A DNA stretch of 63,446 nucleotides, counting the filler. It is 7 parts of 7 records of this genome, joined end to end, with 100 filler letters (N's around TTAATTAATTAA, not from the genome) between each part and the next. Parts side by side here need not be neighbours in the genome. Positions count along the whole stretch, not along the records: positions 54,484 to 63,446 come from SRR31156797_43003; 6 more parts are not named here. One strand, 5' to 3'. The position numbers were made by a program, and so were the translations under genes. Of the stretch, positions 9,045 to 63,446 are shown one piece after another; position 1 is the first letter of the stretch, and each line of letters begins with the position of its first letter. Below the pieces are notes generated by a model, which did not search any database, had not been told where the DNA came from, and worked only from the letters and a program-made list of their open reading frames with translations.

Positions 9045-9144
9045 NNNNNNNNNNNNNNNNNNNNNNNNNNNNNNNNNNNNNNNNNNNNTTAATTAATTAA
9101 NNNNNNNNNNNNNNNNNNNNNNNNNNNNNNNNNNNNNNNNNNNN
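9045..9144. other. Artificial contig spacer (N-run with TTAATTAATTAA)
   Basis: Same 100-nt pattern occurs six times; composition changes across it. Confidence 0.98.
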
Positions 9145-9512
9145 ATGCCGCATTGGATGCGACAATTATTTTTTGATTTATCAAGACGAGAAATTTTAGC
9201 ATAGCCTTAGCTACGTTATTATTTTTCAACGAAGAAGAATCGAAAAAAATAAGCTTATATGCGACATTTTGTGGTCAATTTAGTATTAATATCAGCAAAT
9301 CTGAGAACAATTTAGGTTGAAAAGAGTTACATATATCAACATTTCCAAATGATTAAATTCTATTAGTATGAAATGAGCATAAATTTTCAGCATCCTATAA
9401 AATACCAACCACGGAAGATTAATCCTGATAATTATTGGGATTGTTAAAGTGAAGCGGTTACATAGGTGCGAAAATGTTTGTTTTCATTTTAAAAAACAAA
9501 AATTTAAAACAG

Positions 9513-9962
9513 ATGAAAATTAATTTGATGAAGATATTTCTTTTCTCAGGCCTGCTACTCATTGCCCAACTGCTTCAGGCCCAGGAATGGCAAACCGATT
9601 TTGATACAGCCAAACAAATGGCAAGTTCGGAGAACAAAGTGCTTCTGCTTGTTTTTTCGGGTTCCGATTGGTGTGCTCCATGCATGAAACTTGAAAACGA
9701 AATTTGGGCTTCTGATGTTTTTAAAAACTATGCAAAAGATCACTATGTATTATACAAAGCTGATTTTCCACGGAAAAAGAAAAATCAGTTAAACGATGAT
9801 CAGGTCAAGAAAAACAAGCAGTTAGCAGAACATTACAACAACAAGGGCTATTTCCCATTGGTGGTAATTTTAGATAAAAATGGCACAACATTAGGCGAAA
9901 CAGGATATAAGAAACTTACGCCTGAAGAATATATCAAGCACCTTAACGAGTTTACAGAGTGA
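9513..9962 (+). CDS. Secreted thioredoxin-family protein
   Basis: Signal peptide; FSGSDWCAPC CxxC motif; start codon uncertain (9474/9513/9528). Confidence 0.88.
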   Translation: MKINLMKIFLFSGLLLIAQLLQAQEWQTDFDTAKQMASSENKVLLLVFSGSDWCAPCMKLENEIWASDVFKNYAKDHYVLYKADFPRKKKNQLNDDQVKKNKQLAEHYNNKGYFPLVVILDKNGTTLGETGYKKLTPEEYIKHLNEFTE

Positions 9963-10948
9963 TAAAAATTAAAGCATTGTGTATATTATTTTTGGCTGTT
10001 TTCAGCATAAAAGCTGTAGCGCAACAGCCCTATAAGCGTACCCTTAAATTAATGGGCAGCAGGTTTGAAATAACCGTTGTTGCAAATTCGCAATCGGAAG
10101 CCAATGTTTATATCAACCTGGCGGTTTCTGAAATAAAGAGAATTGAAAAGCTTATTTCATCCTGGGATGAAAATTCCGAAACTTCCGCCATAAATAAAAA
10201 TGCCGGTGTTAGACCGGTAAAAGTTTCTGCTGAACTTTTTAATTTGATTGAGCGTGCAATCCGCATTTCAAAACTTACAGATGGAGCCTTTGATATCAGC
10301 TACGCATCGATGGATCGCATCTGGAAATTTGATGGCAGCATGATTCAAATGCCCTCCAATGAAAAAATAGCATCCTCGGTTGCAAAGGTTGGTTATGAGC
10401 ACATTGAACTTGACAAGAATGCTTCAACTGTTTTTTTTAAAAAGAAAGGGATGAAAATTGGCTTTGGGGCCATTGGCAAAGGTTATGCTGCCGATAAAGC
10501 AAAAATTTTACTGATAAACAAAGGTGTTCAGGCAGGAATAATTAATGCTTCAGGAGACATGAACACCTGGGGCAAACAACCCAATGGTGAATTATGGAAA
10601 GTTGCCATTACCAATCCAATAAATAAAAATAATGCATTTGCTCTGCTTCCAATAAAAGAAGGAGCTGTGGTTACCTCGGGTGATTACGAAAAGTATGTGA
10701 ACTTTAACGGCAAACGTTATGCTCACATTATCGATCCGCGAACCGGTTATCCTGCCAGTGGAATTATAAGTGCAACAATTTTTGCTCCAAAAGCCGAATT
10801 GGCTGATGCTTTAGCGACTTCAGTTTTTGTAATGGGAATTGATGTGGGACTCGACCGGATTAACCAGCTACCCAAAGTGGAATGTATTATCATCGACGAT
10901 AAAGGGAATGTTCACAAATCAGAAAACATAAAAATTGAAACAGAATGA
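9959..10948 (+). CDS. apbE: FAD:protein FMN transferase
   Basis: LMGSRF, GAFDIS, GAIGKGYAAD, VTSGDYE, HIIDPRTG, ADALAT motifs. Confidence 0.95.
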   Translation: MIKIKALCILFLAVFSIKAVAQQPYKRTLKLMGSRFEITVVANSQSEANVYINLAVSEIKRIEKLISSWDENSETSAINKNAGVRPVKVSAELFNLIERAIRISKLTDGAFDISYASMDRIWKFDGSMIQMPSNEKIASSVAKVGYEHIELDKNASTVFFKKKGMKIGFGAIGKGYAADKAKILLINKGVQAGIINASGDMNTWGKQPNGELWKVAITNPINKNNAFALLPIKEGAVVTSGDYEKYVNFNGKRYAHIIDPRTGYPASGIISATIFAPKAELADALATSVFVMGIDVGLDRINQLPKVECIIIDDKGNVHKSENIKIETE

Positions 10949-11166
10949 GAAGAAAATGGAAACTACTGTTACTGGTTATAGCGGGCTTTGTATTGTTTAG
11001 CTCATGTACGGTTTTAAAAGAGTACGAAAAAGTAAACATTAATGATCCGGATATGGCACTGGCCGACCGGAGTATTGACAAATTCCAAACCAGTTTTCAA
11101 TCGTACAGAGAAGCAGCATCGGGAGCCAACGGTGGGAAAACCGGGGGAGGTTGTGGTTGTAATTAA
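10945..11166 (+). CDS. DUF4266 small lipoprotein
   Basis: Lipobox FSSC; C-terminal REAASGANGGKTGGGCGCN typical of the family. Confidence 0.88.
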   Translation: MRRKWKLLLLVIAGFVLFSSCTVLKEYEKVNINDPDMALADRSIDKFQTSFQSYREAASGANGGKTGGGCGCN

Positions 11167-11177
11167 ACTAAACAAAC

Positions 11178-12482
11178 ATGAAACATTTAAGCATATATAC
11201 ATTACTCCTGCTTTCGTTTTTACTCATAAACCAAACCTATGCACAGGAAAGTACAGAATACAAAAAACGGGTACTGGAGAATACAGAAGTTGACTTGCTG
11301 TTTAGTTATTACGAACAGGATGGCGAAAATGCAGCGGTAACAGGTGGAAGGGGTACAGAGGAATTAACGGATATAGCTCCTTCAATTATCGTGGCAATTC
11401 CGCTAAATGATGATGATGTATTAACCATAAATGCAAACATTTCTGCTTATACTTCGGCCTCATCAAGCAACGTTAATCCTTTTGACGGTGATGGTCCTGC
11501 CGATCCTTTTGTGGCAAGTAGCGGTGCATCGTATAAAGATACCTGGATAAACCTGGTTGGAAGTTATTCGCACAGTTCAGATGATCGGAATAAAATATGG
11601 ACAGCTAACCTTTCAGTTTCTAAAGAATACGATTATACATCGTTTGGTTTTGGCACGGGCAGAACTTGGTTGTTCAACGAAAAAAATACTGAATTCAGCA
11701 TAAACGGAAATGTTTACCTGGATGCGTGGCGACTTATTTACCCAACCGAACTTAGTCCTGGTGGCGATGATGATGAAGCATCAACTGCTTTTGGATTTGG
11801 ACAACTGGTTCCCGGTTACGATCCTTCTTTTACACCTCATTCAGTTAAAGGCAGAAACTCCTATTCTTTTGGTTTGGGCTTTTCTCAAATCCTTTCAAGC
11901 AAAATGATTGCCTATATTTCAAGCGATCTAATTTTACAAGATGGTTTATTGTCGACACCTTTTCACCGGGTGTATTTTGCCGACAAGGAAGATTTTTTCT
12001 ACGAAAATTTTCATCTGGCCGACGACATAGAACGACTACCGGATTCGCGATTTAAAATAGCCTTGGGCGGCCGGTTGAATTATTTTGTAAACCACCGGAT
12101 TACCTTGCGCACCTACTATCGGTATTATTCTGACAATTGGGGCATTTCGTCGCATACGGCAAGTATGGAAATTCCGGTAAAAATCACCGATAAATTTACG
12201 GTTTATCCTTCATACCGGTTTTATAACCAAACTGCCGCCGATTATTTTGCTCCCTACAACGAACATTTATCTACTGAGGAATACTATACTTCCGACTATG
12301 ATTTATCTAAATTCCAATCGAATAATTTGGGATTTGGAATAAGCTATACCGATGTATTTACTCAAACTCATATCTGGAAACTTGGATTAAAAAGCATCGA
12401 CTTAAAATACAACAAGTACGACCGTGATTCCGGGCTTAGTGCATCGATGTTTTCTTATTCAATAAAGTTTGTGGTGGATTAA
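11178..12482 (+). CDS. DUF3570 outer-membrane beta-barrel-like protein
   Basis: SYYEQDG..AAVTGGRGTE, SAYTSASS, ERLPDSR, YRYYSDNWGI, YTSDYDLS; follows DUF4266. Confidence 0.85.
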   Translation: MKHLSIYTLLLLSFLLINQTYAQESTEYKKRVLENTEVDLLFSYYEQDGENAAVTGGRGTEELTDIAPSIIVAIPLNDDDVLTINANISAYTSASSSNVNPFDGDGPADPFVASSGASYKDTWINLVGSYSHSSDDRNKIWTANLSVSKEYDYTSFGFGTGRTWLFNEKNTEFSINGNVYLDAWRLIYPTELSPGGDDDEASTAFGFGQLVPGYDPSFTPHSVKGRNSYSFGLGFSQILSSKMIAYISSDLILQDGLLSTPFHRVYFADKEDFFYENFHLADDIERLPDSRFKIALGGRLNYFVNHRITLRTYYRYYSDNWGISSHTASMEIPVKITDKFTVYPSYRFYNQTAADYFAPYNEHLSTEEYYTSDYDLSKFQSNNLGFGISYTDVFTQTHIWKLGLKSIDLKYNKYDRDSGLSASMFSYSIKFVVD

Positions 12483-12596
12483 ACTATTGAAATTACAGAA
12501 ATATATATTTTGCATTATACAATTCGTAGAACAATAGAAGTTAACAAACGTTTTATTCCCGACCAGAATTAATGTATTGACATAAGAACCTAAAAA

Positions 12597-12643
12597 AATT
12601 GCGACCACCGGAAGCCTCGTTATAGCTTCCGGTGATCGCAATT
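12597..12643. terminator. Hairpin between convergent genes, probable bidirectional terminator
   Basis: AATTGCGACCACCGGAAGC / GCTTCCGGTGATCGCAATT, 19-bp stem with one mismatch. Confidence 0.7.
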
Positions 12644-12681
12644 CTATATAAATAATTTCTTTCTACTGTTTCTTCCCGAGC

Positions 12682-13725
12682 CTATTTGCGTTTCGATTTT
12701 ACATTAGCTTTTTTAGTTGATTTTGCAGCAGGCTTGGTTGCCGGTTTGGTTATGGGCTTGGTAGTTGCCGGTTTTGTGGCAGGTTTCTGCACATCTGGTT
12801 TAGAAACATTGGGCGTAGTAGTTGAAGGTTTTGTGGTTGGTTTCTCAGTAGGAACCTGTACTTTATTGTCCTTCACATTGCTTTTATTACCTGCCTTCTC
12901 CGATTGTGTTTCCCAATCTTTTTGAACGGGTCGTCCGGTACTTGCCGGTGCCTCCGACTTTTTTACATTATTAGCCGGACTGGCCTTTCGACTATTCAGT
13001 TCTGCCCTGTTTCTTACACCTTCATTCCTTTTTTGGAATGACCGGTCGGGGTGTTGACGGCCGTAATCATTTCTTCTGTTTTTATTCTGAATTTCAACCG
13101 ATGTTTTGCTTCTTCTTACCGTTGTGTGTCGATACGTGTTATTCACGTTAATATGAATGTTAACATTGGTTCTGTACCGATGTGGCGGATAAGGGTGCCA
13201 TGGATGGTAATAAGGCGGATAGTATCCCCAATAATACGGCGAACGCCACGGATTATATAAAGGTCCCCAAAACCACACCCAAATTACCGGCGGATGTACA
13301 TATACCGGCTCAATTATATAATCAGGTCCGTACATATAAACATCTCCAACTACCTGAACCTGGGTTTCGCCATTTTCGTCTTTTTCAACGTCTATAGTTG
13401 CAACATCCTGGTACTGGTCCTTCCCAATTACAGCCTGAATGGTAACCACATGTGTATTACCTTTTGAATTTTCAACTACCCGAAGGTAATCTACTTCTCC
13501 ATCTTCGTTTAAATCGAGGTTTGAAATTTGCAATTCCGGATCATTTAATTTTTTCTCAAAATCTTCCAAATCCTCTGCCTCTCCAAAAACCGATGCAACG
13601 GCTTCCAAATCGAGGTTCTCACTAATATCGGGGCTTTTAGCTTCAACGGTTGTAACATCTTGTGCATTTGTTATAAACACGGTTAACAACACTCCTATAA
13701 AAAGAAGTTCTTTTTTGAAAGTCAT
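12682..13725 (-). CDS. Secreted hypothetical protein with EF-hand-like motif, Y/W/P-rich segment and KP(A/T)T-repeat tail
   Basis: Signal peptide; DLNEDGEVD; WRSPYYWGYYPPYYHPWHP; basic low-complexity C-terminus. Confidence 0.85.
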   Translation of the reverse strand: MTFKKELLFIGVLLTVFITNAQDVTTVEAKSPDISENLDLEAVASVFGEAEDLEDFEKKLNDPELQISNLDLNEDGEVDYLRVVENSKGNTHVVTIQAVIGKDQYQDVATIDVEKDENGETQVQVVGDVYMYGPDYIIEPVYVHPPVIWVWFWGPLYNPWRSPYYWGYYPPYYHPWHPYPPHRYRTNVNIHINVNNTYRHTTVRRSKTSVEIQNKNRRNDYGRQHPDRSFQKRNEGVRNRAELNSRKASPANNVKKSEAPASTGRPVQKDWETQSEKAGNKSNVKDNKVQVPTEKPTTKPSTTTPNVSKPDVQKPATKPATTKPITKPATKPAAKSTKKANVKSKRK

Positions 13726-13977
13726 GATTATAATATTTGAGTTTTAATATATTAGTTAGCAAGTTAACAAAACAAAATTCAATCTACTAATAAGTTGCCA
13801 TAAACCGATGGAATTTCATTTGTTAACCCATCAATGATATTACACTTTAAATAAAAAGTCCTGAAAACACCGCTAAGGATGAGCTGGGACTAGTGTGAGA
13901 GGCAAATACCTCTTTATTTTTTACTTTTTAGCCTGATAGTTGAATCCCATTGATTGCCAGCATAGTCATTAAGGCAT

Positions 13978-14003
13978 AAAAAAAGCCGGCATACACCGGC
14001 TTT
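13978..14003 (-). terminator. Rho-independent terminator
   Basis: AAAGCCGG-CATACA-CCGGCTTT with A-run (U-tract on minus strand), just after the 14024 stop. Confidence 0.8.
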
Positions 14004-14023
14004 CTTCTTTACTTTTTCTTTAC

Positions 14024-15451
14024 TTATTTTACAAGTGCCACATCAGGCATTACAAACGATTTGTTCCAAAATGCTTCATCGGGACCATACAAACGCAACC
14101 ACACATAAGGCTTTTTCCCTGATGTTGGTATCCAGTTTGATTCCAGTCCATCAGGTGCTTCCGGCCCAAAATAGACATCCACACTTCCGTCGTCATTCAT
14201 TTGCATATCGGGTGTGTTAAACAAGCCCAATCCCGAACGTCCCAGGTCGTTGTCTATAAATGCCCAGTTGGCATTGTCGTATATGGTTACCGACCAGAAT
14301 TGTTTTGCAGGTATATCTTTTGGTATTGTTATTTTATACAAGTTGCCAGCTTCCAAAGGTCTGTCTTCGGTATCAGCCATTGGCGCCAAATAAACGGTTG
14401 CAGGTCGTTCGCCCAATTTTTGTGGGTAGAGCGTAAAAAAGCTCCAGGCTGCTGCACGTTTATCTAATTCTATTTGCGTTTCAGTAACAAAGTCAAATCC
14501 ATCTTTTTCATCGGTTTGCATTACAAAACTCCAGTTTCTGTTGTCCCAATAGCGGCCACGCTCATGGTGCTCATCAACCAAATCATACATATAGTGGTAG
14601 GCATCTTTTGCGGCCTTATCAAATATTGCTTTTTCACGAGCAGTCGGATTAAATGGTTTCCCGGATTCTATACCTATGGATGACAACATCCCCATCATTA
14701 CTTTATCGCGCTCCAATACCGGTTCAACACTAAATATCTCATGTATGTCTTCCAGCATTCTGTAATCGTAATGCGGCAAGGTTTGCAAAGGAAATTGTAA
14801 ACCATCCACAAATTTGGTCTTTTGATCTTCAGCATTTAAATAATACATACCCAAAGTTTGGGTGTATTCATAAGCATCCTGGTCGGTGGCATTATCGCCA
14901 CGTATGGAACGAAAAACCAAGGCTATACGATAGGTAGTTGACTGGACTACAAAATACCCTTCAGGAACTTCTCCTTCGTAATCCGGAGGAAGAAACAGGT
15001 ATTTCCCTCCTTTACCTTTATCGGCACCCGAAGGCCCAACACCTGCTATGGTTGATTGCCAGGCATCAACTATTTGACCGTACAAACTTGCTTTTTCGTT
15101 TACGGCAGGTACATCTAATACTACTGGCCCATTGCGTAAATCGGTGTAAGCGGTTATGTATGGTGTTGCCGTGTTCGCCGTTATTGCTTTGTGTTTTGAT
15201 AAAGCCGGTTTAGAATAAGCAATTACCACGTTATCGTCAACTCCGGGTAATTCCAAAAAGCCTTCGCGTAAACGGTGTACTGTTGTGGCAGGTACTGCCC
15301 ACACCACGGCTTCGAAAGCACGTTGATACATTACTTGTTCTTTGAGAGAAAGATTCATTTCTGATTTCTCTTTTTGCTCTGAAGGCCCCATACAGCTTGT
15401 TAAAAGTGTAAACCAGGCCAGAACTGCTACTGTTAAATTTTTTGTTTTCAT
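14024..15451 (-). CDS. DUF1254/DUF1214 domain lipoprotein
   Basis: Lipobox LLTSC; TANTATPY, DAWQ, GADKGKGGKYL, FWSVTIYD, NWIPT, LRLYGP. Confidence 0.88.
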   Translation of the reverse strand: MKTKNLTVAVLAWFTLLTSCMGPSEQKEKSEMNLSLKEQVMYQRAFEAVVWAVPATTVHRLREGFLELPGVDDNVVIAYSKPALSKHKAITANTATPYITAYTDLRNGPVVLDVPAVNEKASLYGQIVDAWQSTIAGVGPSGADKGKGGKYLFLPPDYEGEVPEGYFVVQSTTYRIALVFRSIRGDNATDQDAYEYTQTLGMYYLNAEDQKTKFVDGLQFPLQTLPHYDYRMLEDIHEIFSVEPVLERDKVMMGMLSSIGIESGKPFNPTAREKAIFDKAAKDAYHYMYDLVDEHHERGRYWDNRNWSFVMQTDEKDGFDFVTETQIELDKRAAAWSFFTLYPQKLGERPATVYLAPMADTEDRPLEAGNLYKITIPKDIPAKQFWSVTIYDNANWAFIDNDLGRSGLGLFNTPDMQMNDDGSVDVYFGPEAPDGLESNWIPTSGKKPYVWLRLYGPDEAFWNKSFVMPDVALVK

Positions 15452-15559
15452 AATAATTGTTGTTATCGTTGTTAATACTTGTTGTTTTACAATGCAAAAA
15501 TGCTGTAAGGGAAGCAATCCTTCTTATCCAAAAGCTTCATCCATTTATCCATTCAACCC

Positions 15560-15587
15560 AAAAAAAAAGCCGGCATAAACCGGCTTT
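15560..15587 (-). terminator. Rho-independent terminator
   Basis: A-run plus AAAGCCGG-CATAAA-CCGGCTTT, just after the 15607 stop. Confidence 0.8.
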
Positions 15588-15606
15588 AACTATTTTTATC
15601 TTTTTC

Positions 15607-16773
15607 TTACATTTTATGCAATTGCGGAAGTTTATATTCCAAGGAAATTACTTCATCTGAAGGTTCGTACAACCTTAGTATAAGGTAAAAAGTTCCTTCG
15701 GGTGCTGGTAACCAGTTATCGGTGTTTTCAGGCTTCTCATTCTGAATCAGGATTTCGAAAGAACCATCCTCATTTATTTTTAAGCCTTTCGACTCACGAC
15801 TAAACTTGTATCGATCCAGTACGTTTTCGTAAAGCAATTTATTGTTTGCATCGTACAGGGTAAGCGACCAAAAGGCTCCCACCGGAGGTTCTTCATCGAA
15901 CCTTATTTTGTAACTATTTTTACCTTCCAACAGTTGGTTATCGCTATCGGTATAACGGGCCGGGTACATGGCTTCTTTTTCGCCCTGGCCCCCAAGGTAG
16001 GGGCCGGCAATTAATGAGCGAAATGAAAAATCGTAACCATAATTATCAAGTTTTAATGCCATTATCCAACCATTGTTGATATGTGTGGAAGAGTACATGG
16101 AAGCCAATATGGCCATTGGTGCTTCCAAAGCTGCTTCCTTTAAGCCCTTAAGCTGGTGTTCGTTTAATGAAGCCTCATCAAACTTCCCATCTTTTATGCC
16201 AATACGCTCAAACTGCCCAACCAAAGATTTATCCTGTTCCAACATATTGTTTTGTTCCATAGCAAAAGCCAGGTAACGGTAAAACCTTAAACTATCGGAT
16301 ACCGGGTGTGTTGGCATTTCAGGCAGTGCCGCAGCTTTTATTTTTTCTCCTCCATTAAATTCGCTTAGCGATTTCAAGCTAAACTGATCTTGCAAGGCAT
16401 GTATTTTCGAAACATCTTCGCCCTCCAACACATGCATTCTACCCCACAACCATACTTTTTGTGTATTTACTTCAACGGTTTTATCAACCGAGGCTGGTAG
16501 TTTTCCTTCCCAGCCAGGAGGAACAAGCGCTACAGTAAGCACTTCAGTTCCCGTATTGCGTTTACCAATGTATTCGGTTAAAGTGTGGTACATATCGAAA
16601 ACATTTACTACAAAATAACGTCCATCAGTATCGGGTGTATTTAGGATAAAAGGTTCGGTTAAATCCACCACGGCACTCATGTAATAGGTATCGTTGTTGG
16701 CGGTTGGCATGTCTTTATCGGCAGCCGTTGGTAAAGTTGTTGCCCATCCTATTTCGTTTATAGGAGCCCGGTA
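15607..16773 (-). CDS. DUF1254/DUF1214 domain protein (5'-truncated)
   Basis: NNDTYY, EAMYP, PPVGAFWSLTLYD, NWLPAP, LRLYEP; frame runs to contig edge. Confidence 0.88.
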   Translation of the reverse strand, partial: YRAPINEIGWATTLPTAADKDMPTANNDTYYMSAVVDLTEPFILNTPDTDGRYFVVNVFDMYHTLTEYIGKRNTGTEVLTVALVPPGWEGKLPASVDKTVEVNTQKVWLWGRMHVLEGEDVSKIHALQDQFSLKSLSEFNGGEKIKAAALPEMPTHPVSDSLRFYRYLAFAMEQNNMLEQDKSLVGQFERIGIKDGKFDEASLNEHQLKGLKEAALEAPMAILASMYSSTHINNGWIMALKLDNYGYDFSFRSLIAGPYLGGQGEKEAMYPARYTDSDNQLLEGKNSYKIRFDEEPPVGAFWSLTLYDANNKLLYENVLDRYKFSRESKGLKINEDGSFEILIQNEKPENTDNWLPAPEGTFYLILRLYEPSDEVISLEYKLPQLHKM

Positions 16774-16873
16774 NNNNNNNNNNNNNNNNNNNNNNNNNNN
16801 NNNNNNNNNNNNNNNNNTTAATTAATTAANNNNNNNNNNNNNNNNNNNNNNNNNNNNNNNNNNNNNNNNNNNN
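16774..16873. other. Artificial contig spacer
   Basis: N-run with TTAATTAATTAA. Confidence 0.98.
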
Positions 16874-26194: not shown

Positions 26195-26294
26195 NNNNNN
26201 NNNNNNNNNNNNNNNNNNNNNNNNNNNNNNNNNNNNNNTTAATTAATTAANNNNNNNNNNNNNNNNNNNNNNNNNNNNNNNNNNNNNNNNNNNN
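26195..26294. other. Artificial contig spacer
   Basis: N-run with TTAATTAATTAA. Confidence 0.98.
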
Positions 26295-33904: not shown

Positions 33905-34004
33905 NNNNNNNNNNNNNNNNNNNNNNNNNNNNNNNNNNNNNNNNNNNNTTAATTAATTAANNNNNNNNNNNNNNNNNNNNNNNNNNNNNNNNNNNNNNNN
34001 NNNN
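33905..34004. other. Artificial contig spacer
   Basis: N-run with TTAATTAATTAA. Confidence 0.98.
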
Positions 34005-39418: not shown

Positions 39419-39518
39419 NNNNNNNNNNNNNNNNNNNNNNNNNNNNNNNNNNNNNNNNNNNNTTAATTAATTAANNNNNNNNNNNNNNNNNNNNNNNNNN
39501 NNNNNNNNNNNNNNNNNN
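39419..39518. other. Artificial contig spacer
   Basis: N-run with TTAATTAATTAA. Confidence 0.98.
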
Positions 39519-53986: not shown

Positions 53987-54248
53987 GTCTATAATTCAGG
54001 CTACCGTTTTAAACTCCGTGTGAATGAACACAAAGCCACCCCACGGATCGTAAACAATGTCAATGGGTCGAATTCGCGAATCTGCCCCCAGAGACTGGAT
54101 TCAACCATGGCGACTCGTAATTTGGCCCGTAGTGCTTGGACGAATCAAGAGGGTCCCGCCCCTGGTGGTCGAAGCCAGGCCTTCGGATTGACTGACAGTT
54201 AAACTTACAGCATCTGTTTGGGGTAATGTTTCCATGGGAGAAAGGAAC

Positions 54249-54383
54249 ATGCCCCGGATATCTTCCGTTTACAAGCCCCGTAAGCCTCAGGAATCCCAAT
54301 ACTACCAGTGTATCGAGGACAATTTCGAGAGTCTGGAACAGGTTTATGACGATCAGTTCTCAAAAGAATACGGCTTTTTTCGG
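54249..54383 (+). mobile_element. IS91-type (Y2) transposase N-terminus, truncated
   Basis: VYKPRKPQESQYYQCIEDNFESLEQVYDDQFSKEYGFFR matches the recalled N-terminus of deltaproteobacterial IS91-like transposases; at contig end. Confidence 0.65.
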
Positions 54384-54483
54384 NNNNNNNNNNNNNNNNN
54401 NNNNNNNNNNNNNNNNNNNNNNNNNNNTTAATTAATTAANNNNNNNNNNNNNNNNNNNNNNNNNNNNNNNNNNNNNNNNNNNN
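54384..54483. other. Artificial contig spacer
   Basis: N-run with TTAATTAATTAA. Confidence 0.98.
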
Positions 54484-54538
54484 CCCCACAACTGTAACCC
54501 GTAAAGGGTTAAACTATAACAAAAAAACGAGGTTAAGG

Positions 54539-55375
54539 ATGGATTTGGAGAACCTTCTGCCGAAGCTCAAACATTGGTTAGAAAAATATGTTGAACAGTT
54601 CGTTTCCCGGGACCCGGCTCAAGCCCCGAACATTCAGGCGGCCCTGGATTTAAAACAGGCCCATACCATCCGGGTTTGCGAGGCCATTGTGGATATCGGT
54701 CAACACGAGGGGCTCTCGGGCGAAGACCTCCTTTTGGCTGAAGCCACGGCTCTGCTGCATGATGTCGGCCGTTTTGAACAATTTAAGCGATATAAAACCT
54801 TTTCCGACGCACGAAGTGAAAATCATGCCCTTTTAGGCGTCAAAGTCATTCATGAAAACGGTATTTTAGCAGGCATTGACCCGGAAAAAGCAAGTATTAT
54901 CATACACGCGGTGGAATGCCATAACAAAGCGACCCTTCCCGCCAATGAGAACGGTCACGGCCTGTTTTTCATGAAACTTCTACGAGATGCGGACAAGGTG
55001 GACATCTGGCGGGTGGTCACCGACTATTACGGTGATGCCCATCATGAGCGAAATCCGACCATTGAATTAAACCTTCCGGACACACCCCATATTTCCGACG
55101 CGGTCTGCAGATCCCTTATGAAAGGAAACATGGTCAAAATGACGGACCTTGAAACATTAAACGATTTCAAATTGCTTCAAATCGGATGGATTTACGACGT
55201 AAACTTCCGCCGAACCTTTCGGATTGTACGGGAGAAAGGATATCTTGAACGGATTCGAGGGACCCTCCCCCCTGATTCCATCCCCGTCAAGGCGGTTTAT
55301 GAAAGAGCATCGGCGTATCTGAACCTGAAAGCGGACGAACCCCGCAAAAATGCGAAAAAAGGGATGTTGTTATGA
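54539..55375 (+). CDS. HD-domain phosphohydrolase
   Basis: K..HT, LLHDVGRFEQ, NHA, HN, RDADK. Confidence 0.9.
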   Translation: MDLENLLPKLKHWLEKYVEQFVSRDPAQAPNIQAALDLKQAHTIRVCEAIVDIGQHEGLSGEDLLLAEATALLHDVGRFEQFKRYKTFSDARSENHALLGVKVIHENGILAGIDPEKASIIIHAVECHNKATLPANENGHGLFFMKLLRDADKVDIWRVVTDYYGDAHHERNPTIELNLPDTPHISDAVCRSLMKGNMVKMTDLETLNDFKLLQIGWIYDVNFRRTFRIVREKGYLERIRGTLPPDSIPVKAVYERASAYLNLKADEPRKNAKKGMLL

Positions 55376-56244
55376 AAACCTATCTGGATTGTTTCCCCTG
55401 TTTCCTGAACCAAGCCCTGCGAGCGGCTCGAATGGCCACCCAAGATGAGAAAAAGATTAAAAGGGTCCTTGATGAAGTGGGCATGATGCTGCCCACCATT
55501 TCCCTTGGAAGCACGCCGCCTGAAAGCGGCCGGCGAATTTATCAAAAGGTGCATGACATTACGGGAAACCCCGATCCATACAAAGCGATCAAAAACAGCA
55601 GCACAAAAGAGGCCCTTTCCTTGTACCCCCGTATGAAGCGCCTCGTGGAAAAATCCCATGACCCTCTGCTGACGGCCATTCGAATGGCCATTGCCGGAAA
55701 CGTCATTGACTTTGGGCCGAACCGGGCCTTTGATATGGCGGAAGAAATTGAGAAGACCTTGTCCAAGGATTTTGCCATATGTCATTATGATCAATTCAAA
55801 TATTTTTTGGAACGATCCGAAAAAATCCTTTATCTCGGCGACAATGCCGGAGAGTGTGTTTTTGACAGAATCCTGGTGGAAACACTGGATAAGCCTGTAA
55901 CCTATGTGGTGCGGGAAAAGCCCGTCATTAACGACGCTACCATGGTGGATGCACGCCAAGCCGGCATTGATGGGGTGGCCGAGCTGATGTCTTCGGGAAC
56001 CGACGCTCCGGGAACCCTTCTGAACACCTGCAAGGAGGCATTTATCCGCCGCTATGATGGCGCGGAATTGATTATCAGCAAAGGCCAGGGCAACTATGAA
56101 GCCCTCTCCACCCAAAAAAAGAACCTTTTTTTCCTACTGAAGGCCAAATGCCCCATCATTGCGGACCATCTGGGTCTGAAGGTCGGCAGCATCGTGCTGA
56201 AAGGGGCCGAGACGGCTACGGAAAGATTGGGCGGCCCACGGTAA
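55372..56244 (+). CDS. DUF89/ARMT1-like damage-control phosphatase
   Basis: DCFPC, DPY, GNVIDFG, DNAGE, INDAT, KGQGNYE, KC. Confidence 0.93.
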   Translation: MKTYLDCFPCFLNQALRAARMATQDEKKIKRVLDEVGMMLPTISLGSTPPESGRRIYQKVHDITGNPDPYKAIKNSSTKEALSLYPRMKRLVEKSHDPLLTAIRMAIAGNVIDFGPNRAFDMAEEIEKTLSKDFAICHYDQFKYFLERSEKILYLGDNAGECVFDRILVETLDKPVTYVVREKPVINDATMVDARQAGIDGVAELMSSGTDAPGTLLNTCKEAFIRRYDGAELIISKGQGNYEALSTQKKNLFFLLKAKCPIIADHLGLKVGSIVLKGAETATERLGGPR

Positions 56245-56261
56245 AAACAGGAAACGCAAGC

Positions 56262-56706
56262 ATGATGCGAAAAGAGAAAATAGGCTTTTATTCCATCGGG
56301 GTCAATGTGTTGCTGGTGGCCATCAAGGGGGTGCTGATGGTGGCTACGGTCATTACATTTGCTTTTTCCCGCTACGGATTGCGCCAGGGAAAAATTATTG
56401 GTTCCCTGAGTGATGCAAAGCATATTTGAACGGACATGATGTCCTCGTGTGTCATTCTGGCCGGCTTTGTAAGGAGAAGGGATCAAGGTCGGCGAATGGC
56501 TCCTTGAAAAAGGCGCGGACTCGGTTTATAGTCCAAAAGGTTTTGAAGGAAAGGGCCCCGGTTATGTCTTTTCCGATGCCGGCGTGGATGTGATGTTGAC
56601 CGGCGACAAAAACCTTGCGGCCCTTCAGCGTGCTATTCAAAAGAAAGCCGGTGCTGAAAAAATATCTCAAAGGTTAGAATTGAAAGGAGAAACAGAAGAT
56701 GATTGA
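56262..56706 (+). pseudogene. Internally deleted CDF transporter-NifB/NifX fusion remnant
   Basis: CDF TM1 (SIGVNVLLVAIKG), DAKHI*TDMMSS with stop at 56427, then in another frame GIKVGEWLLEKG..GKGPGYVFSDAGV. Confidence 0.7.
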
Positions 56707-56965
56707 TGTGGTGGTATTTCACAGCGGCAACCCCGGGTGAAGGAGTTGTCAGGCGGCCATAGGTGTGGCCGAAAAAATCAAGGAGAAAATGGGGGATGAC
56801 ATTAGACTGGGGATCTTTACCAATGATTCCATGGAGGCCATGAAGTATAAACTTCGAAGTTCCACAAGCGTTTTCGTAAACGACGAGCAACTTCCTCTGG
56901 AAACGGCGCTTTCAGTGGAAAAGATGGAGACATACCTCAAAGGGGCGGAGACCACCGACTGTTGA
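56699..56965 (+). CDS. Putative selenoprotein, small thioredoxin-like UxxC protein (88 aa, Sec14)
   Basis: AGGAG RBS, ATG 56699, MIDVVVFHSGNPG-TGA(56738)-RSC in frame with ORF 56765-56965; SECIS-like hairpin downstream. Confidence 0.85.
56754..56771 (+). promoter_or_regulatory. Bacterial SECIS-like hairpin
   Basis: CGGCCAT-AGGT-GTGGCCG stem-loop; 20 nt separate the UGA from the loop. Confidence 0.7.
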
Positions 56966-57671
56966 AGCCATCATAGCTCCAGCAGTCTTGAAGCGCTTTC
57001 CTGGATGTATACTGGGGATTTTCGGCCCACAACAGCATCTGTTCATGGGCATTGTTCAGCTTTTTGAATTGGTCTTCGTCGCCCCCTGCATCCGGGTGGT
57101 GTACCTTTGCCATTTTTTTGTAGGCGGCTTTGATTTTGGCTTTAGATCCGTCATTGGACAAATCATTTCTTTCCAGCTTCAGGACCTTCAAGCTTCCTGT
57201 TTCCTGTCTGGAAAGCCTGGGGCTGCATTTCCGGTCCGGTTTGATCTGTTCCAGGGCAATGGATTTCTGGTGGTTCCGGTTCACCAGGTGAAGGGATGCG
57301 TAACTCATTGAGCGGTTGTTATCCACCATTTCATGCCATTGTTTACCAAACTCCAGCACCATCCGTTTCAAATCCTCGGCGGGTTTGTCACCCCGGGTTC
57401 TAGACCGCGAAAACCTGGAAATATGTTTGCTCCAAATGGGAAAGACATCCAGAATCACCCGGTCACTGGTGAAAGAAAAGGCGGCATATCGTGTGTTGAG
57501 GGCCCTGAGCAAACCCTTTGACAAGGAAAGGACCCACTGGATATAACTGCGGCACTCTTTTGAGCAATAACGCCTGCGGGCTCCGATATTATCCTTTCCG
57601 CAAGCCAGGCAGGTATTTCTTTTTGTGGGGATGGGAACTTTCTGGATTTGGTTTTTGGCGGTCTTTTGCAT
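56937..57671 (-). CDS. J-domain protein with N-terminal Cys motif
   Basis: CLAC..YCSKEC; IKAAYKKMAKVHHPDAGG. Confidence 0.85.
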   Translation of the reverse strand: MQKTAKNQIQKVPIPTKRNTCLACGKDNIGARRRYCSKECRSYIQWVLSLSKGLLRALNTRYAAFSFTSDRVILDVFPIWSKHISRFSRSRTRGDKPAEDLKRMVLEFGKQWHEMVDNNRSMSYASLHLVNRNHQKSIALEQIKPDRKCSPRLSRQETGSLKVLKLERNDLSNDGSKAKIKAAYKKMAKVHHPDAGGDEDQFKKLNNAHEQMLLWAENPQYTSRKALQDCWSYDGFNSRWSPPL

Positions 57672-57962
57672 CGCAGTTATGACGAAATGATGTTTTTACG
57701 GACAGCGTTTGGTGGTCAAGGCCGTTGTGCATAAAGGGTTCTTTTTTGACCTATGGCCTCCCCATGACTGTTCCCAGTATCTTTTTTGTAACCCAAACGC
57801 CGGGTATAATCAAGCGAATCTTCTTTATTCGCATCTGATACGGCTTTTGTCAGGGAGAAATGGATTTTATCAGAAAAATGTGCATTGCGGATTTGGTTAT
57901 GCTAGAATCTCCCGATTCATTGCTCCCATTCCGGGATCAGAGGGAAAACCTTTTTTTAGATA

Positions 57963-58601
57963 TTGACCATGCCGGAATCCACTCATGCCCTTGTCAGCGT
58001 GCTGCACCAGAGTGTGGTCCATATTGAACCGTTCATTCGGCATTATGGGTATCTTGCACTTTTTGTCATCATATTTGCGGAAGGGTGCGGCATTCCCTCT
58101 CCGGGCCAGACCATTCTCATTGCTTCGGCAATTATGGCGTATCATGGGGATCTGCGCATTGAATGGGTGGTGTTTGTTTCTTTTTCCGCCACATTCCTGG
58201 GCAATTGCACCGGGTATTACATTGGCCGCAGTGTGGGTAAACATTGGCTGGGCCGTCTTCTGCCCGGTGAAGAAAAAATGGGTAAAATCGAAAGACGACT
58301 CAATCGGTGGGGTTTTTTATTATTGGTTGCGGGTCGCTATATTGAGGGCCTCAAGCAAACCCTGGGTCTCATTTCGGGTGCGCTTCGTATGACGCCGGCC
58401 CGTTTTGTTCTGGCAAACGCCACGGCCAGCTTTTGCTGGGCCGTACCCCTGGCCCTGATTCCCTATTGGGTAAACCGGCACATCCATCAGTTTCTGCTGT
58501 TGAGCAAGGAATATCGGTTGGTGGCATATTTGCTGACGGCAGGAATCATCTGTGCGGTGACCGGTGTCATGGTTTTTCGTTTCCGAAAGTTGAAACCATA
58601 A
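57963..58601 (+). CDS. DedA family membrane protein
   Basis: YGY, EG.GIP.PG, GYYIGR, GRYIEGLK. Confidence 0.9.
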   Translation: MTMPESTHALVSVLHQSVVHIEPFIRHYGYLALFVIIFAEGCGIPSPGQTILIASAIMAYHGDLRIEWVVFVSFSATFLGNCTGYYIGRSVGKHWLGRLLPGEEKMGKIERRLNRWGFLLLVAGRYIEGLKQTLGLISGALRMTPARFVLANATASFCWAVPLALIPYWVNRHIHQFLLLSKEYRLVAYLLTAGIICAVTGVMVFRFRKLKP

Positions 58602-58609
58602 AAGAAATG

Positions 58610-58648
58610 CGCAACCGTTCACGGTTATAAGAACCGTTAACGGTTGCG
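58610..58648. terminator. Hairpin between convergent genes
   Basis: CGCAACCGTTCACGGTT-ATAAG-AACCGTTAACGGTTGCG, 17-bp stem with one mismatch. Confidence 0.65.
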
Positions 58649-58665
58649 AAATAAGCGGAAGGGAT

Positions 58666-60747
58666 CTACTTTTCAGGGGGCATGGGGGTCTTGGAAATGG
58701 TTAGTCTCAGCTGACAGCGCAAACACCGTTTGGCTTCTTCCAGGGCCATTGTTTCATCGAAAACGTGTTCCACTTCCTCAAAACCTTTGAGGCATTCCTC
58801 CACCGGCATCATCTCTTCGTGTATCCGCTTATAATGGGCAAAGCCTTCATCTCTACCCAAGCGTTTTGTTTCCGGTTCTTCGGGAATGAACCGCTGCATA
58901 ATGTCGCCCGTGCCGCCTAGGTATTTGTCAATTTCGGAGGCTGCCTCGCGTCCGGCATGAATCGCTTCAATGACCGTTGCCGGCCCACTCATCACGTCAC
59001 CGCCGGTAAACACCCTTTTCCGTTTGTACGCTCTGGATTTATCGGCTTTGATGTACCCTCGCCTGTTCAGCATAATTTCAAAGCCCCTGGGAATGACGGC
59101 TTTTTGTCCGATGGCCATGACAAATCGATCGACTTCTAAAATAAACTCGCTCCCTTCAACGGGAACCGGACGACGACGGCCGCTGGCATCCGGTTTTCCC
59201 AGTTCCATACGGATACACTGGACTTCCAGGCAGTCTTCCCGGGCTGTAACGCCGATGGGTGCCACCAGAAAATCAATGTTAACCCCTTCATTCAAGGCCG
59301 CTTCGATTTCCTCCGGTGAAGCGGGCATCTCTTCCCGGGTCCGTCGATACAGCATGGTCACCCGGTCCGCACCCGTACGCAGACCGCAGCGGGCCACATC
59401 AATGGCCACGTTTCCGCCGCCCACCACGGCGACCCGGCCTTTCAGGTCGGATGTCCCTTCGAGATTAATTTTCCGCAATACCGACAGACCATCCAATACG
59501 CGCGGGTCATCCTCGCCGGGAATCCCCATGGTGGTCCCCTTTGTGGCTCCCATTCCCAGAAAGATGGCGTCAAAACCCTGTTCAAAGAGATCATCAATGG
59601 ATACAATCCGGGTATTGTAAAAAAAATCCACGCCGATATCTTCAATGTCCTTAATTTCCTGATCCAGTACATGGCGTGGCAGGCGGTATTCAGGGATGCC
59701 GATCCGCATGGTTCCGCCACCCTTGTCCAAGGCTTCGAACACCATGACCGCATGGCCCTTTTTCCTGGTGAACCAGGCTGCGGTCAGTCCGGCGGGTCCC
59801 GCGCCCACAACGGCCACTTTTTTACCGGTGTCAGGAAGGATCTCCAGTTTTTCACGCCAACGCCCGGTATCCCGTTCCGCCACGAATTTTTTCAGCGCAC
59901 GGATACTGATGGCTTCATTGACCTCACCCCGCCGACATTCATCTTCGCACGGATGGGGACAGACGCACCCTAAGGTGTGCGGCAACGGGACGGTTTCACG
60001 GATCACCTCAATGGCATCTTGATAACGGCCTTCGGCAATCAAACGGACATAGCGGGCCACGTCGATCCCTGCCGGACAGGTATTGGTGCAGGGAAGAATG
60101 AAGGCCTCACGGGTTTCTTCAGTGAAAGCGTCTTTATCCCGCAGGGCGCCGGAAGGGCAGACTTCGACGCAGGCTTCACAGAATTTACAGCCGGAATCCA
60201 TGATGGGGACATTGGCCTGGGTTCCCACATAGGTTTTGATGCCCCGGTCGATTAATCCGATTGCGCCGATGCCCCGGACTTCCTGACACATGCGGACGCA
60301 ACGTTCGCACAAAATACAGCGCGAAAGATCCCGGATATAAACCGGTTCATCCTGTGGGATCTCCGGTAGCTTTCTGGGCTCTGAAACATGGCCGGGTAAG
60401 GCATCCTTGATCCCCACCCATTCAACCACCTTTTGAAATTGGGAAGATTCAGCCAGTTCTTTGGGATGGTCGCTTAACATGAACCAGATAATATTTTTCC
60501 GAAATTCCTGAAGCTGCGGAGTATTGGTCCGAATCATCATCCCTTCGGATACATAAGTGGTGCAGGCCGGGGGCAATCCCCGCATTCCGTCAATTTCCAC
60601 CAGGCATAAACGACACGCCCCTAAAGGGGGTAAGTCGGGATGATAACATAGATTGGGAATATAGATTCCGGCATCAAAAGCCGCCTCAAGGACGGTTTTT
60701 CCCTCTTCCACCTGTAACTGTCGGTCATCAATCGTTATCTGTATCAT
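58666..60747 (-). CDS. NuoG/HydA-type Fe-S N-terminus fused to a GltD/NfnA-like FAD/NADPH module
   Basis: IPNLC..GACRLC..AC, CILCERCVRMC, CKFCEACVEVCP, PCTNTCP, VCPHPCEDEC, GAGPAG, GGGNVA, YRRT, EAKRCLRC. Confidence 0.9.
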   Translation of the reverse strand: MIQITIDDRQLQVEEGKTVLEAAFDAGIYIPNLCYHPDLPPLGACRLCLVEIDGMRGLPPACTTYVSEGMMIRTNTPQLQEFRKNIIWFMLSDHPKELAESSQFQKVVEWVGIKDALPGHVSEPRKLPEIPQDEPVYIRDLSRCILCERCVRMCQEVRGIGAIGLIDRGIKTYVGTQANVPIMDSGCKFCEACVEVCPSGALRDKDAFTEETREAFILPCTNTCPAGIDVARYVRLIAEGRYQDAIEVIRETVPLPHTLGCVCPHPCEDECRRGEVNEAISIRALKKFVAERDTGRWREKLEILPDTGKKVAVVGAGPAGLTAAWFTRKKGHAVMVFEALDKGGGTMRIGIPEYRLPRHVLDQEIKDIEDIGVDFFYNTRIVSIDDLFEQGFDAIFLGMGATKGTTMGIPGEDDPRVLDGLSVLRKINLEGTSDLKGRVAVVGGGNVAIDVARCGLRTGADRVTMLYRRTREEMPASPEEIEAALNEGVNIDFLVAPIGVTAREDCLEVQCIRMELGKPDASGRRRPVPVEGSEFILEVDRFVMAIGQKAVIPRGFEIMLNRRGYIKADKSRAYKRKRVFTGGDVMSGPATVIEAIHAGREAASEIDKYLGGTGDIMQRFIPEEPETKRLGRDEGFAHYKRIHEEMMPVEECLKGFEEVEHVFDETMALEEAKRCLRCQLRLTISKTPMPPEK

Positions 60748-62531
60748 TGTATTGCCTCAAAGTTACATGCATCAATGCAGCTTTTACATTTTATGCATTG
60801 GGTCTTCTCAAGGATTGGATATTGCTTCTTTTCCCATGCAATCGCTTCCACCGGACAGGCTTTAAAACAGAGCCCGCATTTGGTGCAGTTTTCTTCGACG
60901 AACTCAAATTTCACCAGTGCCGTACACACATGTGACGGACATATGCGATCATGAATATGCGCCTCATATTCTTCCGGAAAATAACGCAACGTGGTTAAGA
61001 CGGGATTGGGTGCGGTGTTGCCGAGCCCGCACAACGCCGTATTTTTGATGGTGTTTCCCATCTCTTTGAGAAATGTCAAATGCTCCTCTTTGCCGCGTCC
61101 GGCGGTGATTTCATCTAAGACTTCCAGGGTACGTTTCAAACCGATGCGGCAGGGGACGCATTTTCCGCACGATTCCGCCACCGTGAAGTCCAGGAAGAAT
61201 CGGGCCACGTCCACCATGCAGGTGCGTGTGTCCATGACGACCATCCCACCGGACCCCATAATGGCGCCGGTCTCATTGATGGATTCATAATCAATGGGCG
61301 TATCCAACAACCTTTCCGGCAAACAGCCGCCGGAAGGGCCGCCAAGCTGGATCCCTTTGAACTTGGCTTTTTTCTTGAGCATGCCGCCGCCCGGCCCGAA
61401 GACCAGATCCCGAATGGTCATGCCCATGGGGACTTCCACCAGGCCCGTATTTTTGATTTTCCCGGCAAGGGCAAATACTTTTGTTCCTTTACTTTTCTCG
61501 GTGCCGATGGAAGCAAACCATTGTGCGCCTTTTTCAAAAATATGCCGGATATTGGCCAGGGTTTCCACGTTGTTGATGGTGGTGGGTTTTCCCCACAACC
61601 CCTTCTGAGCCGGAAAGGGCGGCCGCGACTTGGGCATCCCCCGTTTCCCTTCGATTGAAGCGAGCAAAGCGGTTTCTTCTCCGCAGACAAAGGCACCCGC
61701 CCCCTGTTTGATGGTCAGATGAAACGAATGACCGCTTCCCAAAATATTTTTTCCCAGATAGCCGCGCTCTTCCGCCTGGGCAATGGCTCTGGTCAAGCGT
61801 TTGATGGCAACGGGATATTCAGCCCGGCAATAGACATACCCTTCCGTTGCGCCGATGGCATATCCGGCGATAATCATCCCTTCGACCACGGCATGGGGGT
61901 CCCCCTCCAAGACGCTGCGATCCATGAATGCACCGGGATCCCCTTCATCGGCATTGCAGACAATATACTTTTGGTCGCCTTGTGCCTGCCTGCAGAAATC
62001 CCACTTCATCCCGGTGGGGAATCCGGCCCCGCCGCGTCCCCGCAGTCCGGAAATTTTCATCTGTTCAATGACCTCTTCAGAGGTCGTTTTGAGCACTTTT
62101 TCCAGTGCCTTGTAGCCCTTGTGCGCCAGATAATCGTCAATACTCATGGGATCGATTTCGCCGCAATTGGCCAGGACGATACGGGTTTGATCGGCAAAAA
62201 ATTGCCGGTAATCTTCCCCCGCCAGGAGTTTTTTGACCGGTTCCCCTTTCACCAGGTGCTCTTCCACAATTACGGGCACATCTTCAGGCTTGACATATTC
62301 GTAGGTGATTCTTTCGGCATCCGGACTGACAATGTCCACAAGCACATCCCTGAACAGGCCCCGGTCTCCGGTCATAACCACATCATAGCGATCCCCTAAA
62401 TTGTGCTGTTTCAGCCCTTCTTTAAAGAGCTCTCCCACTTTTCTCGCTCCGGCGGAAATTCCACTGGTTCCATTGCATATGAGTATTCTATTTTTCATGA
62501 TCCCGCATTCTCCGATCGATACTTTTCCCAT
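60744..62531 (-). CDS. NuoF/HydB-like NADH-binding flavoprotein
   Basis: SGLRGRGGAGFPTG, NADEGDPGAFMDR, GAFVCGEET, ESCGKCVPCR, LCGLG, C-terminal 2x[4Fe-4S]; start may be 62498. Confidence 0.95.
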   Translation of the reverse strand: MGKVSIGECGIMKNRILICNGTSGISAGARKVGELFKEGLKQHNLGDRYDVVMTGDRGLFRDVLVDIVSPDAERITYEYVKPEDVPVIVEEHLVKGEPVKKLLAGEDYRQFFADQTRIVLANCGEIDPMSIDDYLAHKGYKALEKVLKTTSEEVIEQMKISGLRGRGGAGFPTGMKWDFCRQAQGDQKYIVCNADEGDPGAFMDRSVLEGDPHAVVEGMIIAGYAIGATEGYVYCRAEYPVAIKRLTRAIAQAEERGYLGKNILGSGHSFHLTIKQGAGAFVCGEETALLASIEGKRGMPKSRPPFPAQKGLWGKPTTINNVETLANIRHIFEKGAQWFASIGTEKSKGTKVFALAGKIKNTGLVEVPMGMTIRDLVFGPGGGMLKKKAKFKGIQLGGPSGGCLPERLLDTPIDYESINETGAIMGSGGMVVMDTRTCMVDVARFFLDFTVAESCGKCVPCRIGLKRTLEVLDEITAGRGKEEHLTFLKEMGNTIKNTALCGLGNTAPNPVLTTLRYFPEEYEAHIHDRICPSHVCTALVKFEFVEENCTKCGLCFKACPVEAIAWEKKQYPILEKTQCIKCKSCIDACNFEAIQ

Positions 62532-62977
62532 GTTTCTTCGACATTCTGAATGGTACAGCGCCCATAAAAGTCTTCATCGATCATGATCGCCGGCGCCATC
62601 CCGCAGCACCCGAGACATGCCACACGTTCCACTGTGAACAGGCCGTCTTCCGTTGTTGCGCCTTCTTCAACTTCCAGCTTATCCAGGAGATAGTCAAACA
62701 AGCCTTTGGCGCCCATTACATGGCAGGCGGTTCCCTGACACACCCTGATGGTGTGTTTCCCGCGCGGGGTCAAATAGAATTGGGTATAAAAGGTCAAGAC
62801 GCCGTAAATTTCCACGGGAAAAATGGAAAGCTCCCGGGCTACCAACTGCACGGCGTCGTCGGGAACATAGCCGTAAGCGGCTTGAATATCCTGCAAGAGC
62901 GGAATTAGCGCGCCTTTTTTCTGGCTGTATTTTTCAATGAGCGTTTTGGTGGGTGACAGATCTACATTCATGAGCAA
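62495..62977 (-). CDS. NuoE/HydC-like 2Fe-2S subunit
   Basis: CQGTAC, ACLGCCGMAP. Confidence 0.95.
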   Translation of the reverse strand: MLMNVDLSPTKTLIEKYSQKKGALIPLLQDIQAAYGYVPDDAVQLVARELSIFPVEIYGVLTFYTQFYLTPRGKHTIRVCQGTACHVMGAKGLFDYLLDKLEVEEGATTEDGLFTVERVACLGCCGMAPAIMIDEDFYGRCTIQNVEETWEKYRSENAGS

Positions 62978-63123
62978 ATCCTCTTTGGTTGGGGCATTAA
63001 GGCCATGTAGTCATTAATAATGTGTTCTTCAGAGAAATGGAAATTCTTGAAAATTTATGATAACATGTTCAATAATTAATTTTTTGTCAAGAAATATTTC
63101 TTTTACATCAAGGGGATGTTCGG

Positions 63124-63446
63124 GTGGATAAATTTGAGAGCATAACGAATCACAATTACCGGTCTTTTCTTCAAAATGTGACGGAGTATGTTGTCGCCAT
63201 CAATAGGAATTTTGAGATTATCATGGCCAATGATCTGTTCAAGGAACGGTTTGGCGGAAATCCGAAGGGGTTTTGTTTTCAAGCCTGGAAGAAAAGGGAT
63301 TTCAAATGCGAGGATTGTATCGTTGAACGATCATTTCAGGACGGAAAAAGCCATCAACGCGAAGAAACGGTTGTGATGAAGGATGGACGAAAAACGCAGA
63401 TGCTGCTCCGGACCACGCCGGTGAAGGACGCTCGTGACAGAATTAC
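63124..63446 (+). CDS. PAS-domain sensor protein N-terminus (3'-truncated, absent from the ORF track)
   Basis: GTG 63124 open to window end: ..EYVVAINRNFEIIMAN..GFCFQAWKKRDFKCEDCIV..TPVKDARDRI. Confidence 0.75.
   Translation, partial: MDKFESITNHNYRSFLQNVTEYVVAINRNFEIIMANDLFKERFGGNPKGFCFQAWKKRDFKCEDCIVERSFQDGKSHQREETVVMKDGRKTQMLLRTTPVKDARDRI

Follow-up and report, generated by a model that had tools for sequence, protein, structure and literature searches.

A TsoX-type selenoprotein gene with an in-frame TGA adjoining HD, DUF89 and decayed CDF-NifX genes

Introduction

The closest described system is TsoX, which the accessible part of a 2026 review (PMC13188914) tabulates as a UxxC protein with one selenocysteine (Sec), citing Haft & Tolstoy 2025; the same part expands Tso as 'three selenoprotein operon'. 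A literature search found TsoX only in that review, and the term 'Tso' is absent from the main text of BSepDB (PMC13326102). The family has a curated profile, NCBIfam NF045809.1 'HSGNPxU motif (seleno)protein TsoX'. The nearest solved relatives by sequence are PDB 1nho and 1fo5.

The gene described here, at 56699..56965 of the analysed DNA, had been proposed in a first-pass annotation as a hidden selenoprotein gene missed by the gene caller, possibly of an undescribed family. Comparison of the read-through product with the NCBIfam (seleno)protein profiles, suggested there as a check, gave a clear match to NF045809 (123.5 bits against a cut-off of 52, E 3e-36), with an alignment covering profile positions 2-80 of 82. 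The family is not new, since this match coincides with the TsoX entry in the accessible part of PMC13188914. The product is almost certainly a TsoX selenoprotein, and the locus is very probably best explained as an ordinary member of that named family. It provides a clean example of a caller-truncated gene in a family that has already been named, given a curated HMM and catalogued in 2026.

Materials and methods

The window (the whole stretch of DNA analysed, 63,446 nucleotides with filler) consists of seven contigs separated by N-linkers at 9045-9144, 16774-16873, 26195-26294, 33905-34004, 39419-39518 and 54384-54483. The GC content of the contigs ranges from 0.39 to 0.55; the window probably mixes organisms, because the piece 9145-16773 has 0.39 and the others 0.48-0.55. 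As the contigs were merely joined, only 54484-63446 counts as tsoX context, and genes left of 54484 were excluded from it. A short frame at 54226-54383, just left of the linker on the neighbouring contig, seems to begin like a transposase-associated protein. A public contig (depth ~36) is identical to 54500-57700 with 0 differences; it may come from the source sample, so this identity is not independent.

Two scans of the collection for homologues returned 12 and 49 loci. Excluded from all counts were L007-L012 and L030-L061 (38 weak partial matches, 35-46% identity over residues 14-37 or 14-60); L072-L078 and L096-L104 are weak and below the cut-off. L029 was omitted from the TGA count because its contig begins at residue 33. 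The bSECIS model, taken from the accessible part of PMC13188914, has a loop of 3-9 nt, a stem of 4-16 bp, a G in the first two loop positions, a spacing of 16-37 nt from the UGA and a minimum free energy of -7.5 or lower.

Host and Sec machinery

The closest loci are assigned to Deltaproteobacteria, Desulfobacteraceae and Desulfatiglandales, which suggests that the host is probably a Desulfatiglandales-like member of the Desulfobacterota. In the close-relative genomes G001-G005, selB and tRNA-Sec were found over cut-off in 5/5 each, selA in 4/5 and selD in 3/5. No tRNA-Sec was found within the window itself.

Gene features

The gene and its reading frame comprise the following features.

56685..56689, + strand: Shine-Dalgarno sequence AGGAG, 9-nt spacer to the ATG at 56699, within the 3' end of the CDF-NifX remnant
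56699..56965, + strand: tsoX coding sequence, 88 aa with Sec14, predicted thioredoxin fold, match to NF045809
56738..56740, + strand: in-frame TGA, the Sec14 codon (U of H-S-G-N-P-G-U-R-S-C), conserved as TGA in homologues
56747..56749, + strand: Cys17, second residue of the UxxC motif, Cys in 38/39 rows of alignment A2

The frame runs for 13 codons from the ATG to the TGA and continues through R-S-C to the stop at 56963-65, so that both the HSGNPxU motif and the UxxC motif are present in the product. The 66-aa ORF starting at GTG 56765 is the C-terminal portion of the 88-aa read-through. The ribosome binding site, start codon, TGA and read-through length of the first-pass annotation were all confirmed on the sequence, and AAAGGAG is retained upstream of tsoX in 20/20 close homologues. 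Truncation by gene callers, also claimed earlier, is supported: 33 of the 35 database homologues are forms of 53-73 aa, and the nine sequences inspected all begin after the UGA.

The protein is five residues longer and Cys-terminated in the window, L013 and L014/L015, and the same loci share a converging J-domain gene. The terminal TGA, which follows Cys88, was also considered as a Sec codon and rejected; there is no SECIS-like hairpin, and most homologues end five codons earlier.

Conservation and recoding of the TGA codon

TGA occupies codon 14 in 23/23 sequences (22 loci with a full N-terminus and the window). In 33/33 distinct stretches, representing 47 loci, only TGA was found at the Sec position, with a search pattern that also permitted Cys or Trp. 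In HMM searches, 10 of 401 genomes of the phylum and 14 of 209 genomes of the order of G004 had matches over the cut-off, every one of them with one TGA. The database homologue P0038 has Cys at the Sec position, and the homologue check at position 14 that had been proposed thus turned out in favour of Sec. In 36 distinct genes the 13 codons 5' of the TGA show conservation together with synonymous variation, and the codon that follows them is always TGA, never TAA or TAG. Sec recoding of the TGA at 56738-40 is strongly supported.

Two other readings of the codon were weighed. Full-length homologues in A2 have Trp at position 14 in three cases (P0003, P0006, P0037), Gly in one and Ser in one, and the Trp rows would fit decoding of the TGA as Trp by a reassignment of the genetic code 4 or 25 type, giving a WxxC protein. 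However, TGA is the ordinary stop of 4/7 other genes of the contig, including the ATGA stop/start overlap at HD/DUF89, and a general reassignment is therefore ruled out. TGG occurs in 0/33 distinct DNA stretches, a Cys homologue is known, and the W forms come from ENA only, with truncated cluster mates elsewhere: in the P0003 cluster all four 84-aa Trp forms are from ENA, and the four JGI/NCBI/Logan members are 62 aa long and begin after the codon. This pattern suggests that one pipeline translated TGA as Trp, and the probability of a genuine Trp codon is close to nil. The TGA might alternatively be a true stop, the locus being a pseudogene or the 66-aa ORF from GTG 56765 the real gene, as the decay of the neighbouring CDF-NifX gene and the dominance of the short form among database entries could indicate. 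Against this stand the 13 conserved upstream codons with the invariable TGA after them, and according to the structural model the short form would be without strand 1 and the active site; a true stop is very improbable.

The ENA-derived entries P0003, P0006, P0037, P0078, P0080 and P0081, all with Trp at the Sec position, could mislead homologue checks; they are probably gene-caller artefacts.

SECIS element

The hairpin proposed 3' of the UGA was confirmed, with its 7-bp stem and AGGU loop.

56754..56771, + strand: SECIS hairpin, 7 bp, loop AGGU at 56761-56764 beginning 20 nt past the UGA, -10.6 kcal/mol

These values (loop 4 nt, stem 7 bp, AGGU, 20 nt, -10.6) lie within every range of the bSECIS model as given in the accessible part of the review. 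A simple version of the model is matched by 9/346 TGA triplets of the contig (both strands, all frames, tsoX included). The folding energy of 73 nt is not significant (z = -1.29, 21/200 shuffles equally good). The case for the SECIS element rests on conservation and covariation, because the folding energy is unremarkable by itself.

The third positions of the Ala20 and Val23 codons are paired in the stem, and each of 36 distinct genes combines either GCC with GTG (19 genes) or GCT with GTA (17 genes). The resulting C-G/U-A swap is synonymous. It mostly tracks two clades, so the covariation represents few independent events. The Ile21 codon is ATA in 33/33, compared with 11/169 Ile codons in the other genes of the contig. 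Over 23 aligned sequences the stem positions pair in 91% of cells, whereas slid controls reach no more than 52%. Pairing is weak at the outermost position (11/23). The tsoX hairpin is under selection, and with this locus the TsoX SECIS element gains further support from covariation. From what is established about Sec incorporation, SelB would bind the hairpin and bring Sec-tRNA to the UGA. The earlier claim of a hidden UxxC selenoprotein with a SECIS element is borne out by the TGA conservation, the Cys homologue and the hairpin covariation taken together.

Gene neighbourhood

Upstream and downstream of tsoX the contig contains the following.

54539..55375, + strand: HD-domain protein gene (PF01966), ordinary TGA stop overlapping the DUF89 start
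55372..56244, + strand: DUF89/ARMT1-like damage-control phosphatase family gene (PF01937, 234 bits)
56262..56706, + strand: CDF-NifX fusion remnant, lacking ~256 and ~518 nt through two deletions and disrupted by a frame change and a premature stop
56504..56532, + strand: sigma-70-like site TTGAAA-17-TATAGT, 10/12, inside the remnant and 195 nt before tsoX, candidate promoter
56937..57671, - strand: convergent J-domain protein gene (PF00226), overlapping the last 29 nt of tsoX

The J-domain protein has an N-terminal CxxC...CxxxC motif. Intact CDF-NifX proteins have 413-419 aa with the Pfam domains Cation_efflux, ZT_dimer and Nitro_FeMo-Co; the last stop of the remnant overlaps the tsoX start. 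Within the available flanks of the 20 close loci, HD was found in 15, DUF89 in 6 and CDF-NifX, whole or in part, in 18. The placement of tsoX at the end of an HD/DUF89/CDF-NifX operon, as claimed earlier, thus holds for the gene order, which is intact in relatives; it does not hold for CDF-NifX itself, which is a pseudogene remnant here. CDF-NifX is deleted in 7/20 close loci (L001, L013-L017, L022) and absent from two, with tsoX intact. As tsoX persists while its neighbours decay, adjacency to those neighbours is not required.

Upstream of tsoX, seven distinct junction types were found, five of them ending 207-274 nt 5' of the ATG: those of the window, of L001/L016/L017, of L013-L015 and of L022, and a DUF89-to-56482 joint (56236-56482) in run X2, which a loose end in run X3 matches. 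The other two end at about -19 and -42 (L005, L020). The -195 site scores at least 9/12 in 6/7 deleted loci examined and reads TATAAT in L001/L016/L017; it is missing in L022 and in four intact loci. Such sites occur in 5/67 windows of the contig and the deleted lineages are related, and for these reasons an internal promoter for tsoX within the CDF-NifX remnant is put forward as a tentative hypothesis only, judged from the sequence to be rather doubtful.

Adjoining tsoX, no tsoA, tsoB or tsoC was seen on the contig, which starts only 2.2 kb upstream. In G001-G005, which are possibly incomplete, TsoA and TsoC were found in 0/5 each and TsoB over cut-off in 0/5; as positive controls, TsoA was detected in three and TsoC in one of the other TsoX genomes. 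Among 21 distant TsoX loci with short flanks, TsoA-like genes were found in 5/21 (within ~1.5 kb), TsoR-like genes in 5/21 and DsrE-like genes in 7/21. TsoX therefore has at least two genomic contexts, the close loci being of the HD/DUF89/CDF-NifX type and some distant ones of the Tso type.

Further genes were observed at particular loci. A DsrE-like gene directly follows tsoX at L071:1767-2069 (+), and similarly in L068, L082, L083, L086, L087 and L088; in L068 and L071 it has an in-frame TGA within a UxxC motif. The L071 gene gave no NCBIfam match at E 0.001 and only the Pfam DsrE match, and possibly belongs to a DsrE-type selenoprotein subfamily without a model of its own. L003 and L004 have a longer cluster of chemoreceptor, DGC-domain protein, HD, DUF89, DsrE, CDF-NifX and tsoX, with an extra diadenylate cyclase-like gene between DsrE and CDF-NifX in L003; after tsoX follow a family-5 solute-binding protein and a cytochrome of the octaheme tetrathionate-reductase family (two ORFs in L004). 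At L067:1811-2755 (-) an MbdU-like metal-binding selenoprotein gene lies between a TsoA-like gene and tsoX; its product does not reach the full length of the model (364 bits; cut-off 600).

Structure and proposed function

AlphaFold2, run on a 39-row alignment, yields a model (pLDDT 89) whose topology is that of a minimal thioredoxin, with U14 and C17 located where helix 1 starts. Foldseek and VIA-align both place thioredoxins at the top (best Z 11.5, rmsd 1.8, 81 residues), and the thioredoxin-like fold predicted in the first-pass annotation agrees with the model and with both structure searches. The truncated TsoX homologues have a precomputed Pfam assignment, PF26315. A cis-proline is typical of disulfide oxidoreductases. 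At that position TsoX has a threonine.

56864..56866, + strand: Thr56 at the thioredoxin cis-Pro position, aligned to the Pro of 1nho and 1fo5 (profile alignment)

Thr56 is Thr in 37/39 rows and appears near-invariant in the alignment. His8 is present in 28/29 rows covering the position.

From fold and motif, TsoX may well be a small cytoplasmic selenol/thiol redox catalyst, an assignment held with modest confidence. In such a catalyst the Sec14 selenolate would attack a disulfide, a persulfide or a metalloid-thiol adduct on a specific partner; Cys17 would then resolve the intermediate to a Se-S bond, which would be re-reduced. Since the usual cis-Pro is a Thr here, metal or metalloid binding competes with plain disulfide reduction. 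In that case a soft metal or metalloid would be ligated by Sec14 and Cys17, possibly joined by His8, and handed to a transporter or enzyme. The conservation of His8 points the same way, as do the CDF-NifX and DGC neighbours and, at distant loci, the ArsR/SmtB regulator TsoR and the MbdU-like metal-binding selenoprotein. However, according to a published account, peroxiredoxins also replace the cis-Pro and are themselves redox enzymes, so its loss is compatible with redox work. tsoX stays intact both in the window, where CDF-NifX is deleted, and at the close loci listed above, where CDF-NifX is deleted or absent, and the TsoB rhodanese/DsbD and DsrE-like neighbours point to a sulfur or redox relay. 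A metal or metalloid binder or chaperone is accordingly regarded as possible but rather doubtful.

A more specific proposal is that the TsoX subclade left the Tso operon and acts as a lone selenolate carrier of metal or metalloid, without cis-Pro and with its promoter inside CDF-NifX. If true, it would explain why 5/7 junctions end just short of the -195 sigma-70-like site and why that site reads TATAAT in one deleted lineage; it is considered unlikely. For the favoured selenol/thiol catalyst as for the metal binder, the second context without tsoA and tsoC and the Thr in place of cis-Pro make the function of TsoX, a family defined by computation, testable, redox work against metal binding. 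The second context and the Thr are additions to the description of the family, perhaps already covered by Haft & Tolstoy 2025.

Comparison with known systems

Like the TsoX family of NF045809, the gene product has the HSGNPxU motif, a UxxC motif, one Sec and a length of about 83-88 aa. It differs in its subclade, which is tight (16 rows, 97/98 support in the tree) and whose genes adjoin HD/DUF89/CDF-NifX genes. The described Tso neighbourhood consists of TsoR, TsoA, TsoB, TsoC and TsoY; some distant TsoX homologues do sit there, whereas in the window and at the 20 close loci the neighbours are HD, DUF89 and CDF-NifX. With the small thioredoxins of the MJ0307/MTH807 type and the MTH895/ArsE family (TIGR00411, TIGR00412; 1nho, 1fo5) TsoX shares the minimal thioredoxin fold and the position of the CxxC-type motif at the start of helix 1. 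However, it scores far under the cut-offs of both models (23.8 against 92.75 for TIGR00411 and 19.8 against 62 for TIGR00412), has Sec for the first Cys and two extra residues before the motif, and has Thr for the cis-Pro. The classical thioredoxin/glutaredoxin oxidoreductases likewise share the thioredoxin fold and a CxxC-type motif at helix 1, but they have a cis-proline before strand 3, where TsoX has Thr56 in the sequence alignment.
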